Positions 22,297 to 43,856 of a DNA stretch of 64,000 nucleotides are shown one piece after another. The translations under genes and the position numbers were made by a program. The stretch's first letter is position 1. Every line of letters begins with the position of its first letter. The notes beneath the pieces are model-generated. The model was not told the origin of the DNA and searched no databases. It saw nothing but the letters and a program-made list of their open reading frames with translations. The stretch lies in contig CAWFUR010000012.1 of assembly GCA_963819115.1 (NCBI GenBank), positions 163,706 through 227,705 on the forward strand, written 5' to 3'. This stretch comes from an uncultured Thermoleophilaceae bacterium. GTDB taxonomy: Bacteria; Actinomycetota; Thermoleophilia; Solirubrobacterales; Thermoleophilaceae.

Positions 22297-22370
22297 GCGC
22301 CCGTAGCTCAGCTGGATAGAGCGTCGGTCTACGGAACCGAAGGTCACAGGTTCGAATCCTGTCGGGCGCG
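22297..22370 (+). tRNA. tRNA-Arg (anticodon ACG)
   Basis: Cloverleaf folded by hand: acceptor GCGCCCG/CGGGCGC, D arm GCTC/GAGC, anticodon stem TCGGT/ACCGA with loop CTACGGA, T arm ACAGG-TTCGAAT-CCTGT. Length 74 nt, CCA not encoded. Confidence 0.9.
22327..22370 (+). repeat. 44-bp direct repeat, proximal copy (attL-like, inside tRNA-Arg positions 30-73)
   Basis: Identical to 43813-43856 by direct comparison. Confidence 0.9.
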
Positions 22371-22661
22371 CTCTAGGGATGCCGCTGTCTGAGCTGCTCC
22401 CCCGCTCTGGAGAGCAAATTCGTTTGCGCGCCCTCGGTATCCCCAGCCCGCTGGAATCCGCTGGGCTCCGCTGTTCTGGGTCGCTAACCTCCCCCATCTC
22501 CTCCCCACCGGGACCCAGGCTGAGGGCCGACCAAAGAAGCAAGCCCGCTTGCGCGGCTGGCCGCTTGCTCGGTGGCTGTCGAGATGACTTCTCCCCCGCT
22601 GTCGGCGGGGGTCCCAGCCCTCGGGACGGACGGTCTTACGCGCTCCCGCTAGGCCCGAGCT

Positions 22662-22995
22662 CTCAAGCGGGCGGGGTACGCGGCTGAGATCGAGCGCCTC
22701 GACCAGCGGCGCTGCGAATCGGATCTTCCAGTTGGTTAGGAAGCCCCGGAGCTGTTCCTCGATGGCCCGGGTTCGATGCGCGGGCTGCTTCTGGTACGTG
22801 CGAAACGCTCCCAGCTTCCCATGCGCAGCCAGGATCTCCTCCACGACGGGAGCACCCAGGTTCGGATCAGCTCGTCCTCCAGGTCCGCCTCGCAGACGTA
22901 GAAGCCAAGTCGTTCCATGGCGGCACGGTCGAGGTCGAAACCGAGGCCGGCGCGCTCTAGTGCACGCCGAAGCGTGTCCTCTTCTCCCGCGTCGC
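22662..22995 (-). pseudogene. TOPRIM/OLD-family nuclease C-terminal relic (frameshifted)
   Basis: Two minus frames read LGFYVCEADLEDELIR and then DPNLGAPVVEEILAAHGKLGAFRTYQKQPAHRTRAIEEQLRGFL..KIRFAAPLVEALDLSRVPRPLE. The frame switch is near 22860-22870. The N-terminal ATPase is absent. Confidence 0.5.
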
Positions 22996-23026
22996 ACAGG
23001 CCGGCGTCCGCCGGCTGGGGTGGATC

Positions 23027-23359
23027 ATGCGCATCCTGGCGGCGCTCGGCCGCTCGGCCCGGATGTCCCCCGCCCAGTCTGCGGACGTGGTGATCGAGAT
23101 GGACGCCGTGAACGGCGAACTCGGACCCGACTTCGCCGCGCTGGAATGCCCGACCGTGTTCGTGGTTGGCACCGGAGCCCATTCGGGCGCCACCGAGGAC
23201 GAGATGCGCACGGTGCGCGCTGCCGTCGCCGACGCCGAGGAGCGCAACAAGCGCATATCCGTGTTCGCGACGACGCCCCACAAGCACACGCAGATCCTCA
23301 GCAAGGCCCCCGACACCGTGGTCGCCGCGATCGAGGACGTAGTCCACGGGTCTCGCTGA
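23027..23359 (+). CDS. hypothetical 110-aa ORF, possibly a C-terminal alpha/beta-hydrolase fragment
   Basis: The pattern ECPTVFVVGTGAHSG...ATTPHKHTQILSKAPDTVVAAIEDVV resembles the last strand/His block of alpha/beta hydrolases. It lies within the relic-rich stretch. Confidence 0.3.
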   Translation: MRILAALGRSARMSPAQSADVVIEMDAVNGELGPDFAALECPTVFVVGTGAHSGATEDEMRTVRAAVADAEERNKRISVFATTPHKHTQILSKAPDTVVAAIEDVVHGSR

Positions 23360-23898
23360 CCAGCGTTCGACCGCTCGACGCATCGTCCTCTTCGCCGACC
23401 TCGTGCGCCTCGAGATCGAGCTGTTGGACGCTGTCGAGGCGCGGCTGCGCGGCGCGCTGGCGGGGGGCTGGAGCAACGAGAGCGGGCGACGCCCAGCAGG
23501 AGCCCGGGGCCGACGCCAGCCCCCCTGAGTCGAGGGTCTGGGTCGGGCGCCTCGTAATCGAGGATGCTCTCTCCTCCGGCGAGGTGGCCTTTGACGGCTC
23601 AGCCGAGCTCGCTGGCAGCCTCCCGCGATGGATCGGGGTTCCTTCTCGCGCACGCGAGTGCGAGGACGGGCCCACCCGTTTTGGGTCTCGCCGGGTTGGA
23701 AGACCGCTGAGGCTCGACCCGAGACACGCGGTCCGGCCGAGTACGGGGAACCTCGTCCGCCCGCCAATGGTCGTGCTCCTTCGCACTTCTTCGCTATCGG
23801 GGCGACTCATTCGAATGTCGCTCGCAAGCTGAATCCGAGCGATTCCTACGGAGAATCCTCCGTATTCGACGCGTCGATTCAGATCAGGATGCACGAGG

Positions 23899-23920
23899 GG
23901 GGGCCGGCGTGCCGGCCCCC
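23899..23920 (-). terminator. GC-rich hairpin downstream of the BNR-protein gene
   Basis: The arms gggggccggc and gccggccccc are inverted repeats, about 38 nt past the stop at 23958. There is no U-tract. Confidence 0.35.
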
Positions 23921-23957
23921 GCCCCCGCGATCCGTTCCCGGGAAGCTGACCCCGGGC

Positions 23958-41481: not shown

Positions 41482-41751
41482 GAGCCACGACAGCAGCGCA
41501 CGGCCGGCCGCGGGGACGACGCGTGCGAGCCGGGTATCGGCACCAGAACGCCAAGCTGAGGGCCCGGGTACCCATGGGGAGGGGACGGCCGTGACCCACG
41601 TCAGATGTGCAGGCGCCGGGTTCCGGCCCGGCAATTTGAGCTCTCATGAGCTGGGTGAGGACGGCAGGATCGCGCACGGCTACCTCTTCACCTGCCCCGC
41701 TGGGGTCATCGAGGTCCTAGCCCGGGCGGGCGACCGGCTGGAGGCGCCCAC

Positions 41752-42913
41752 ATGACCAAGGCGTCCGGCGTTCCGGAGCCCCGCCGCGCCGTTGACGCCG
41801 GCGCGGGTGCAATGGCCTGGCGGTTCGGCGATGCGCTGCGGGTCGGCGACGGCGCCGCCGCCGAGCGCGTCGTGGCGGCGCTGGAAGCCGTCCAGTCTCT
41901 AGTCATCGCGCCGGCAATGGTCAGAATCGGCGAGCTCTGGCAGTCGCGGCTCATCGGCGTGGCCGACGAGCACCTGGCGACATCGATCAGCCAACGGTCG
42001 TTGATCCGCGTGTTCGAGACGATCAGCGCGAACCGGGACCGCGGGCGCTCCCGTGAGCGGGTGCTGCTCGCTGCGGTCGAGGGCCAGCATCATGTGCTCG
42101 GGCTGCGCATGGTGGCCGACGTCCTCGAGGGCGCCGGGTTCGACGTCCTCTACACCGGCGAGGACGTCCCAGTGGAGAGCCTGCGCGACGCCGTCGCCAA
42201 GCATCGCCCCGCGGTCGTGGGACTCGCGTTCGGGATCGCCTCGGACGTGAGCTGTCTGGCCGACTCGCTGTGGGCCATCCACGAGGTCGCTCCCGAGACG
42301 CGCGTCATGCTCGGTGGTCGCGCCGTACCGCCCGGGCTCCGGACCGGCGGATACGCCTGGGTCGCGACGACCATGGAGGTCGTCGCCGCGGTCGAGGATC
42401 TGCTCGCGGGGCCGGGCCAGCCGCTGCCTGAGTTTGTCGACCTGATGCGCTCCCCCGCAGGCGACGATCATGGGCCGCGCGAGCATTCGGTCGAGCCCGA
42501 TGGCGTCGCGGCGCAGCTGGCCAGGGCGGCTGACGAAGCGACGGGTCTCGCCCGCAAGCACGTTCGCCGTGCCGCGACGTACCGGGATCTGGCCTTTCGC
42601 GACCCGCTGACAGGCCTGCCCATGTTCGGCCCGGCGACACCGTGGCCCGCTTCGGCGGCGACGAGTTGCCGTCCTGCTGCCCCACGGCACGCCGGCGATC
42701 GCCGGCGAGATCGGCGACCGCATCCGCTCTGCCGTGGCTGCCACCGTGGACCCGGCCGTAAGCGTGAGCGTCGGGGTGGCTGAGCTTGAGCACGACGCAC
42801 GCCTCGGGGTGCTTGCGGCCGACACGGCGCTGTACGAGGCGAAGGCGGGCGGCCGTGACCGCGTCGAGATGGCGCGCCCCCGGAAGGCTCCCGACAGCCG
42901 GGGACCGGGCTGA
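41752..42913 (+). pseudogene. CarH-type B12-binding domain / GGDEF protein, decayed (internal deletion plus frameshifts)
   Basis: The N-terminus is intact, with ELWQSRLIGVADEH (W-x9-EH) and GQHHVLG. DPLTGL is then joined directly to RPGDTVARFGGDE in another frame. A 1-nt loss follows (gag tt-gcc) before AVLLPHGT...LYEAKAGGRDRV, which ends at TGA 42911-42913. Confidence 0.8.
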
Positions 42914-42916
42914 CCG

Positions 42917-43225
42917 ATGTACGTCTCGATGTCACGATTGGCGATCCCGGGTGAGCGCGCCCCCGAGCTGGTCGCGGCATTTCGCGCTCGTTCGCGGCTG
43001 GCCGATGCGGCCGACGGGTTCATCGACCTCCAGGTCTGGCAGTCCGATCGTGACCCCGGGGAGATCCTGATGGTCAGTCGCTGGACCGACCGCGAGTCCT
43101 TCAAGGCCTACATGAAGAGCGATGCGCACAAGGCCTCGCACGATCGCATCGATCCGGAGCTCAAGGCCGACATCAAGCTCCTGCGGCTCGATCATCTCCA
43201 CACCTACGAGGTGGTTGTCGAATGA
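42917..43225 (+). CDS. ABM-fold monooxygenase, IsdG/MhuD-like (putative heme-degrading)
   Basis: 102 aa. RWTDRESFKAYMKSDAHKASHDRI parallels the IsdG segment [23 protein letters not shown]. Confidence 0.7.
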   Translation: MYVSMSRLAIPGERAPELVAAFRARSRLADAADGFIDLQVWQSDRDPGEILMVSRWTDRESFKAYMKSDAHKASHDRIDPELKADIKLLRLDHLHTYEVVVE

Positions 43226-43635
43226 CCGTTCGTCGCCCCAGCGGAGCTCCGCCGCCCGCCGTCGTAAGGATCGCTGGCGCCGAAACGCCGCTCGGGCCGG
43301 TCGCCGTCGTGATCTGCGACCGCTACCGCGAGGAGTTCCCGGACGAGGCCGAGCGCTACGGCGATGCTGGGATCGACTGGTGTCGCCATGACAACCAATG
43401 GCTGCTCTCCTGGGCCGTGGACGACGTTCTCGAGGCCGCCGACCTCTGTGAGCAGGCCCGCTGGCTGGCGGAGGTGCTGGAAGCCCGGGGCTTCCCCGTC
43501 GATCGATTGGCCCGTGATCTCGAGATCGCGGCGGACGTGGTGGACGAGGGATGTTTCGGCGAGGCGAGCCCGGCGGTTGCGTCGCGTCTCTCGACCGCCG
43601 CCGAGACCGTCGCAGGGCTCAAGAGCGGTTTCTAA
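43222..43635 (+). CDS. small helical protein of unknown family (paralogue of 45925-46374)
   Basis: ATGA overlap with the upstream gene. Shares the motifs ICxRYRxEFPDE..RYG.AG..WCxHDNQ and RGFPVxRLARxLxIAA with the second copy. Confidence 0.65.
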   Translation: MTVRRPSGAPPPAVVRIAGAETPLGPVAVVICDRYREEFPDEAERYGDAGIDWCRHDNQWLLSWAVDDVLEAADLCEQARWLAEVLEARGFPVDRLARDLEIAADVVDEGCFGEASPAVASRLSTAAETVAGLKSGF

Positions 43636-43812
43636 CCGCGGTGCTCGCGGCGGTCATGACGGTCACGGCGCGGTCGCGGCGCTTGTCCCAATGATGGTCG
43701 TGATCGCGGTTCGGCTCGCACGCTCGCCGAAGCCTCCCCACTGCCCTTCCTACGGTTCGGCTCGTCCCTCGGAACATCGCTTCTAGAGCTGAAACTGGGC
43801 GTTCAGGCGGCC

Positions 43813-43856
43813 GTCTACGGAACCGAAGGTCACAGGTTCGAATCCTGTCGGGCGCG
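43813..43856 (+). repeat. 44-bp direct repeat, distal copy (tRNA-Arg 3' fragment, attR-like)
   Basis: gtctacggaaccgaaggtcacaggttcgaatcctgtcgggcgcg is identical to 22327-22370. No convincing tRNA 5' half lies upstream. Confidence 0.9.

Follow-up and report, generated by a model that had tools for sequence, protein, structure and literature searches.

How did a 21.5-kb block of accessory genes come to lie behind a tRNA gene, closed at its far end by an exact copy of the 3' half of that same tRNA? The question is raised by a 64,000-nt stretch of DNA from an uncultured Thermoleophilaceae bacterium (contig CAWFUR010000012.1, positions 163,706-227,705), hereafter called the window, in which the 3' half of tRNA-Arg(ACG) occurs twice and brackets the block, hereafter called the island. 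We put a probability of roughly 0.8 on the island being what is left of an integrative element that inserted into the 3' half of the tRNA-Arg(ACG) gene by site-specific recombination and later decayed. The repeat has a sharp edge, the island open reading frames (ORFs) that were searched include no integrase-like genes, the block is absent from the relatives compared, and fragments with the same boundary occur in other genomes.

The displaced 3' half of tRNA-Arg

ARAGORN recognized a single tRNA gene in the whole window, tRNA-Arg(ACG). This gene, the two copies of its 3' half, which form the left (attL) and right (attR) attachment-site cores, and the DNA between them are arranged as follows:

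22297-22371 (+), intact tRNA-Arg(ACG), the putative regenerated integration target (ARAGORN)
22327-22370 (+), attL core, proximal repeat copy of 44 nt, beginning in the anticodon stem and ending with the discriminator base
22371-43812, island body between the repeats, 21,442 nt, absent after the same tRNA in the genomes L002, L003, L014, L025 and L026
43693-43812 (+), non-coding arm left of attR, a candidate P arm of the element's attachment site (attP), which aligns in register with the L026 arm
43813-43856 (+), attR core, the distal copy of the 44-nt repeat, a displaced tRNA 3' fragment

The 44-mer, GTCTACGGAACCGAAGGTCACAGGTTCGAATCCTGTCGGGCGCG, begins in the 5' strand of the anticodon stem of the tRNA and ends with the discriminator base. 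It occurs exactly twice in the window, both times on the forward strand, with an expectation of 0.00 from 100 dinucleotide-preserving shuffles; the first-pass annotation of this DNA had placed both copies exactly, at 44/44 identity. No further core copies were found in the window, each half of the 44-mer matching only these two sites when up to three mismatches were allowed. Leftward, the similarity reaches 48 of 50 nt and stops there. The 30 nt 5' of the distal copy agree with the tRNA 5' half at nine of 30 positions in register (null 8.5 ± 2.4), and the best local alignment between the two scores 12 (null 11.1 ± 2.1). That the distal copy has no intact 5' half, and that the exact repeat with its sharp edge is a footprint of the attL/attR type, had both been proposed at first pass, and both proposals stand.

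A tandemly duplicated tRNA-Arg gene of which only a remnant survives, or an artefact of assembly, would also place a second 3' half downstream, and the Rfam tRNA model can indeed be forced over 43779-43856. However, it scores only 23.4 bits there, below the gathering score of 29, with the acceptor and anticodon stems broken, and ARAGORN makes no tRNA call at the distal copy. A perfect 3' half (44/44) adjoins a 5' region at chance level, a pattern that a displaced att fragment yields and uniform decay of a duplicated gene cannot. The first-pass annotation had itself raised the tandem duplicate, of which no 5' trace was found. In addition, no relative carries two full tRNA-Arg(ACG) genes at the locus, the same architecture recurs in the independent assemblies L026 and L003, and the window proteins are on record from one 372-kb contig. 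We find this explanation hardly credible.

The tRNA-Arg locus in related genomes

The gene on the left flank of the tRNA, a GSDH-type dehydrogenase (20937-22142, reverse strand), places the window in Thermoleophilia/Solirubrobacterales. GSDH followed by tRNA-Arg(ACG) is kept in five relatives, namely L002, L003 and L014 (68-73% amino-acid identity), L026 (74%) and L025 (87%). In all five the tRNA is identical from its 5' end through the discriminator base, and the 21.5-kb block is absent after it; the possibility that every relative carries the segment, which had been set against the integration reading at first pass, is not what these genomes show. A further relative, L001 (85-87% in GSDH), has a contig that ends inside the tRNA and is uninformative for the site. 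The flank genes have orthologues of 82-99% in L001 and L025; a 513-aa island protein (described below) has no homologue above 71%.

L025 is colinear with the window on the left side (85-99% amino-acid identity) and on the right side carries the cupin, response regulator, PAS-LuxR, P-II and ECH genes in window order (75-96%). Only 6 nt separate its tRNA 3' end from the cupin ATG (locus 9767-9773), with no tRNA trailer or terminator remaining. L025 also shows many split ORFs, for which sequencing or assembly errors may account. In the window the cupin gene begins with a GTG at 47866, and the DNA that is extra relative to L025 amounts to 25.5 kb, made up of 21.5 kb between the repeats and a further 4.0 kb (43857-47865). 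With the tRNA directly next to the cupin gene in L025, the variable zone has to be put at 25.5 kb, not 21.5 kb, and it also includes the B12-binding/GGDEF (B12-GGDEF) cassette and the ferric reductase gene that had counted as lying outside:

43857-47865 (mixed strands), lineage-specific DNA between attR and the cupin gene (Pfam), absent in L025
44278-45615, outside B12-GGDEF gene, followed by an ABM gene and a 149-aa protein with a domain of unknown function (DUF)
46406-47701 (-), outside ferric reductase

In the other relatives the tRNA is followed by 1.7-5 kb of unrelated DNA, different in each. The tRNA-Arg trailer is a hypervariable hotspot.

The same tRNA has been used repeatedly. In L026 a 45-nt direct repeat (locus 9705-9749 and 7604-7648), whose edge lies 1 nt from that in the window, brackets an insert of 2.1 kb that contains an extracytoplasmic function (ECF) sigma gene and lacks an integrase. 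Directly beside the distal copy in L026 is the 3' end of a BBE-type oxidase gene, and the same gene end directly follows the intact tRNA in L002. L026 and L002 therefore form an occupied/empty pair and confirm the expected polarity, in which the displaced fragment stays with the native flank; by analogy with this pair, the footprint in the window would have the same polarity. In L003 a 28-nt repeat, from the T-arm to the 3' end, is found 1.27 kb downstream, and the insert contains frameshifted hydrolase-like ORFs with no Pfam match. Two fragments came from a scan of metagenome contigs, one of 41 nt, exact, in L021 and one of 47 nt with one mismatch in L022, both without a tRNA 5' half; the right flank of the L021 fragment matches the trailer and terminator of the intact L014 tRNA (score 14, null 3.1 ± 1.6). 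The starts of four of the five fragments fall within one 7-nt span of the anticodon stem-loop, equivalent to 22324-22330 of the window: the window fragment at 22327 and those of L026, L021 and L022 at the equivalents of 22328, 22330 and 22324, respectively. tRNA-Arg(ACG) is a recurrent target in Thermoleophilia: the loci examined record no fewer than five independent events. A scan of viral contigs with the 41-nt core gave 0 matches. The island and the L026 insert each have an ECF sigma gene; a comparison of the two showed them to be unrelated.

The window and L026 share more than the tRNA. Global alignment of the 120-nt arms left of the two distal copies scores 40 (null 7.4 ± 10.9, p about 0.001); none of the other nine pairs tested is significant, and the sequences right of the two intact tRNAs have no similarity. 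The simplest reading of this alignment is that the two inserts descend from elements with related attP sites. When the arm and core were compared by BLASTN with phage and plasmid collections, only the tRNA part was matched, and a search for arm-type repeats in the reconstituted attP found no k-mer of 8 nt or more present three times. A 12-mer, CGGTTCGGCTCG, occurs twice in the arm, at 43707-43718 and 43753-43764, 46 nt apart and 50-106 nt left of the attR core; the two copies are candidate arm-type binding sites, are not kept in L026, and represent a motif whose count across the window is at chance level.

These boundaries also bear on whether an integrase was needed at all. Campbell-type homologous recombination by RecA, with a circular DNA that carried the tRNA 3' half, would be expected to leave the same direct repeat, and no integrase has been found in the ORFs searched. 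A repeat of 44 nt is, however, near the lower limit for efficient RecA-dependent recombination. The edge of identity falls within the 7-nt anticodon stem-loop span in four independent cases, which a fixed attP core fits better than random fragments do, and conservation between the window and L026 extends to the adjoining arm. Integration by RecA is thus very unlikely.

In the reading that we prefer, a circular element would have carried an attP whose core matched the final 44 nt of the tRNA exactly, and a tyrosine integrase would have recombined this attP with the tRNA gene, with the crossover in the anticodon-loop region. At the left end, an intact tRNA would have been regenerated from the host 5' half and a 3' half supplied by the element, and the original 3' half would have been displaced 21.5 kb downstream together with the native tRNA trailer. 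The integration module and any transfer genes would subsequently have been lost and several cargo genes would have decayed, leaving as residue a block with att sites at both ends and regulatory, redox and heavy-metal genes between them. The parts of this account that we infer are the enzyme (a tyrosine integrase), where the crossover took place and in what order the events followed, including the later loss of the integration module.

Several results weigh against such an integration. The first concerns the empty site. An exact junction of the tRNA with 43857, which would read tRNA directly followed by TCACGAACTGCC, was not seen in any relative, and a search of metagenome contigs with the tRNA 3' end and the attR trailer gave no empty site of this species; it returned the L021 and L022 contigs with their attR-type fragments and an unrelated tRNA-Arg(CCG) gene (L020). 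The empty-site comparison proposed at first pass thus succeeded in part: relatives with the same flank and the same tRNA lack the segment, but none has the exact junction, and L025 joins the tRNA to the cupin gene instead. The second concerns L025 itself, which may have arisen by deletion. A conserved stretch 5' of the cupin start is common to the window, L002 and L014 and is missing from L025, and the tRNA-cupin junction suggests a deletion ending exactly at the tRNA, possibly an imprecise excision. The third is the trailer after attR, TCACGAAC, which resembles the native trailers of the relatives over only 7-8 nt (score 8, about the 99th percentile). The fourth is base composition. Overall GC content is the same in island and flanks, GC content at third codon positions is 0.87 in island genes versus 0.89 in the flanks (Mann-Whitney p=0.08), and GC skew carries no island signal, so that the codon-usage check suggested at first pass does not distinguish the segment from its flanks; either the DNA came from a relative or enough time has passed for the island to ameliorate. 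Finally, no mobility gene was detected in the scans described below, and the integrase of the element is something we infer, not see.

One compositional feature points the other way. A GC-rich palindromic intergenic repeat of the host that resembles repetitive extragenic palindromic (REP) elements (GTGCTCGCCCG-N-CGGGC...) has five exact matches in the window, with 0.01 expected. The REP-like sites are:

14080-14121, a copy of 67% identity, additional to the five exact matches
14812-14909
20890-20931
60691-60731
60896-60940

One site holds a perfect 48-nt tandem pair. All five exact copies lie in the flanks and no copy was found in 22.3-47.9 kb; with so few independent sites this gap is a weak signal, no more than suggestive.

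Gene content and history of the island

Island ORFs were annotated by Pfam and NCBIfam profile searches, with PHROGs for ten unassigned ORFs. The genes and relics are, from left to right:

22961-23359 (+), CbiG-like gene fragment, NCBIfam E=3e-5, far under cut-off and covering profile positions 162-219 of 290 only
23958-25499 (-), 513-aa protein of no known family, no Pfam or PHROG match
25861-27350 (+), ECF sigma factor and zf-HC2 anti-sigma factor, with sigma regions 2 and 4 in different frames
27515-28183 (+), RHH antitoxin (27515-27769, RHH_1 1.7e-6) and PIN toxin (27770-28183, PIN_3 1.7e-15)
28180-28356 (-), N-terminal scrap of an IS481 transposase, 59 aa, LZ_Tnp_IS481 positions 1-33 of 85, E=0.0078, under cut-off
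29299-32198 (-), NarL-type module of a HisKA_3 kinase, a LuxR-type response regulator (30474-31130) and a second receiver
32898-34516 (-), ferredoxin (32898-33131, Fer4_13) and ferredoxin reductase (Pyr_redox_2, Reductase_C)
35019-41315 (mixed strands), heavy-metal module, made up of the next four entries
35019-37279 (-), CopS/CopR-like two-component system, top matches of the kinase and regulator TIGR01386 and TIGR01387, under cut-off
37513-38718, ApbE (Pfam)
38568-39326, ferric-reductase-like membrane protein (Pfam)
39411-41315, P1B heavy-metal ATPase, TIGR01525 with 511 bits against a cut-off of 346
41659-42910 (+), broken B12-GGDEF gene
42914-43635 (+), ABM (HmuQ-like) gene (ABM 7.9e-17) and a 137-aa protein of unknown family

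The first-pass annotation had described the island as accessory and mosaic, with multiple relics, and had named a toxin-antitoxin pair of the RHH/PIN type, a metal-efflux ATPase and an IS481 scrap; all of these are recovered by the profile searches, the scrap at a score under cut-off. The relics, which include the CbiG-like fragment, are concentrated in the left 6 kb of the island, and the right 15 kb is mostly intact. Sigma70_r2 lies in the frame of 25861-26532, and Sigma70_r4_2 and zf-HC2 lie in the frame of 26190-27347; the split ECF sigma gene is a probable pseudogene. In the island B12-GGDEF gene, the first half of the GGDEF domain is lost: it is left only as profile positions 84-161, in another frame, and the gene is about 165 nt short compared with the outside copy. 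The PIN toxin also matches TIGR00305 above cut-off, and no helix-turn-helix domain was detected with the second receiver of the NarL-type module.

The exact database entry for the 513-aa protein (P0121) confirms its start codon. The protein has an N-terminal hydrophobic stretch that, by eye only, looks like a signal peptide. Its best non-self homologue is 71% identical, and a 49% homologue sits among core genes (ClpX, ValRS), an uninformative context. A six-frame Pfam scan of the 1.6 kb beside the tRNA (22371-23960) matched no family. A relic seen by eye at 22640-22990 (reverse strand, two frames), similar to the C-terminal part of small TOPRIM/OLD-like proteins of actinobacteria, is unsupported by Pfam, NCBIfam and PHROGs and was discarded. 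Two ORF fragments, at 28700-29311 and about 32500-32600 (both forward), share the terminal motif AAEIRRTV.HE..HHLGYSE.GV.ALGL; they look like the C-terminus of a small zinc metallopeptidase by eye only, and neither matches Pfam or NCBIfam.

Paralogues of island genes outside the island, as claimed at first pass, were found by tblastn of the island ORFs against the rest of the window. The ferredoxin/reductase pair matches 54910-56326 with 61% and 54% amino-acid identity, and the last 2 kb of the island (B12-GGDEF, ABM, DUF) is colinear with 44320-46326 at 45-64%; the island ABM and 137-aa proteins share 64% and 52%, respectively, with the colinear outside copies (45620-46374). Cassettes of three genes in the same order (B12-GGDEF, ABM/HmuQ-like and a protein of 137-149 aa) thus flank attR, at 41659-43635 and 44278-46374. 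The two B12-GGDEF cassettes belong to different subfamilies. The island B12 copy is 58% identical to the database protein P0118 and 51-52% to P0117 and P0119, versus 45% to the neighbouring copy; being nearer to database homologues than to its neighbour, it did not arise by a recent local duplication of the cassette. Repeats spaced about 22 kb apart had suggested one large tandem duplication; this was likewise rejected, the offsets being 2.7 kb versus 22.0 kb and the identities 45-64%. The cassette is common in Thermoleophilia, with 443 matches at E<=1e-30, and a copy with 77% identity in L019 stands in an unrelated context, beside tRNA-Thr.

A second tRNA-like sequence lies within the island. 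At 27457-27497, on the reverse strand, the string CGGTCTGGGGGCCGAAAGGTCGCTGGTTCAATCCAGTCG resembles the 3' half of another tRNA. It agrees with tRNA-Arg at 33 of 41 positions in a gapped alignment, carries a T-arm-like GGTTCAATCC, and is the top non-self match to tRNA-Arg in the window, with a score of 31 (runner-up 25). The string, located immediately upstream of the RHH/PIN genes and some 700 nt away from the IS481 scrap, may be a fossil att site of another element.

This string is one reason to consider that the island is composite, i.e. that two or more successive insertions or rearrangements took place at the hotspot, that intermediate att copies were deleted, and that the 44-nt pair brackets the resulting accretion. 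An extra length of 25.5 kb relative to L025, not 21.5 kb, is in keeping with such a history, as are the different DNA found after this tRNA in every relative, the IS481 scrap inside the island, and the clustering of relics at its left end next to a mostly intact right part. On the other hand, the window contains just two tRNA-Arg core copies even with three mismatches allowed, the Rfam tRNA model does not match the 27457 string, and no feature gives separate ages for parts of the island. We regard a composite origin as possible, though rather unlikely.

Mobility genes and known integrative elements

No integrase or other recombinase was found in the 30 island ORFs (Pfam), in the six frames of 22371-23960 or in the ten ORFs compared with PHROGs. 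The Pfam and PHROG scans found no excisionase, small excisionase-type ORFs not having been specifically screened. Among the Pfam matches of the island, which are to regulators and to redox and transport proteins, there is no relaxase or type IV secretion gene, no FtsK-like transfer gene, no replication gene and no transposase core, and the ten unassigned ORFs, which have no PHROG match, yielded no phage structural, lysis or replication gene. Mobility genes were also not found in the scanned right-flank ORFs, and no cognate integrase was found in the 64-kb window, which was scanned except for the part of the left flank before 18826 and several ORFs on the right flank. By gene content, the block is neither a prophage, an integrative and conjugative element (ICE) nor an actinomycete ICE (AICE). 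The first-pass statement that no intact integrase or excisionase is present inside holds for the large ORFs and the six-frame translation next to the tRNA. Its conclusion that the island is immobilized goes further: with no mobility gene found, the block would be unable to move by itself, but its intact att copies might still allow mobilization in trans.

AICEs such as pSAM2 and SLP1 reportedly integrate into tRNA 3' ends with an identity of some tens of nt that extends from the anticodon region to the 3' end. Their gene set comprises int/xis, a gene for replication and one for FtsK-like transfer. The island shares the actinobacterial pattern of tRNA 3'-end integration with them, but the int/xis, replication and FtsK-like genes of AICEs were not found in it.

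A closer comparison is offered by the tDNA islands of the Islander survey, in which 3760 of 3919 islands have a 3' fragment and the largest class (2083 of 3919) has an anticodon-centred attP (PMC4383910). A displaced 3' tRNA fragment downstream of an intact gene is the signature by which such islands are mapped (PMC4383910). The block has three of the four Islander features, namely an intact tRNA end, a downstream 3' fragment in the same orientation, and absence in relatives (PMC4383910), and it also resembles these islands in its anticodon stem-loop start, its size within the usual range and its accessory cargo. Of the five fragments, that of L003 corresponds to the T-stem class of Islander and the other four to the anticodon-centred class. 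Islander requires a tyrosine integrase gene inside the interval (PMC4383910), and none was found in the 30 ORFs, the six frames of 22371-23960 or PHROGs. Without an integrase, unlike those islands, the block would be filtered as inactive or damaged.

Elements that have lost their integration and transfer genes and retain intact attL and attR are defined in ICEberg 2.0 as cis-mobilizable elements (CIMEs; PMC6323972). The island fits this structural definition, having identical attL and attR cores and no integration or transfer genes found, and it could accordingly have the same origin as proposed above and still be mobilizable, i.e. be excised or co-transferred by a cognate integrase acting in trans (accretion-mobilization). 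Such an integrase could be encoded at another place in the genome, or a related element could bring it on landing in the regenerated tRNA. The att cores are perfect (44/44) despite broken genes inside, and L026 has an integrase-less insert with a nearly equal repeat extent and a homologous arm, with a third, small one in L003. However, a recent integration without selection would equally yield a perfect 44-mer, and the small inserts of L026 and L003 are equally explained as deletion remnants. Neither a circular junction nor an empty-site junction was seen, and the scanned part of the window offers no cognate integrase. The CIME concept was drawn from ICE families of Streptococcus, for which experiments have demonstrated both a cognate ICE and accretion-mobilization; the present host is a Thermoleophilia metagenome-assembled genome (MAG), for which no cognate ICE or integrase is known. 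That the island is still mobilizable is therefore unlikely in our view.

The decayed integrative element remains our preferred answer. The block is an ordinary tRNA-integrated island that has decayed; in structure it qualifies as a CIME, and it reveals no new mechanism. Integration into tRNA genes is a well-known route of gene gain in bacteria, and here it is found also in Thermoleophilia, a little-studied class of soil actinobacteria known almost only from MAGs. The island includes genes for heavy-metal efflux and sensing, and it thereby probably added to the metal tolerance of its host. The mapped 44-nt att core and the candidate arm could be used for finding the cognate integrase. A more far-reaching idea, which we consider quite doubtful, is that the window block and the 2.1-kb insert of L026, perhaps with the 1.27-kb insert of L003, form one family of integrase-less, att-bounded cargo with a shared attP arm, moved in trans. 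If this were true, the tRNA-Arg(ACG) trailer would be a modular site of gene exchange in Thermoleophilia and not a graveyard of decayed islands.

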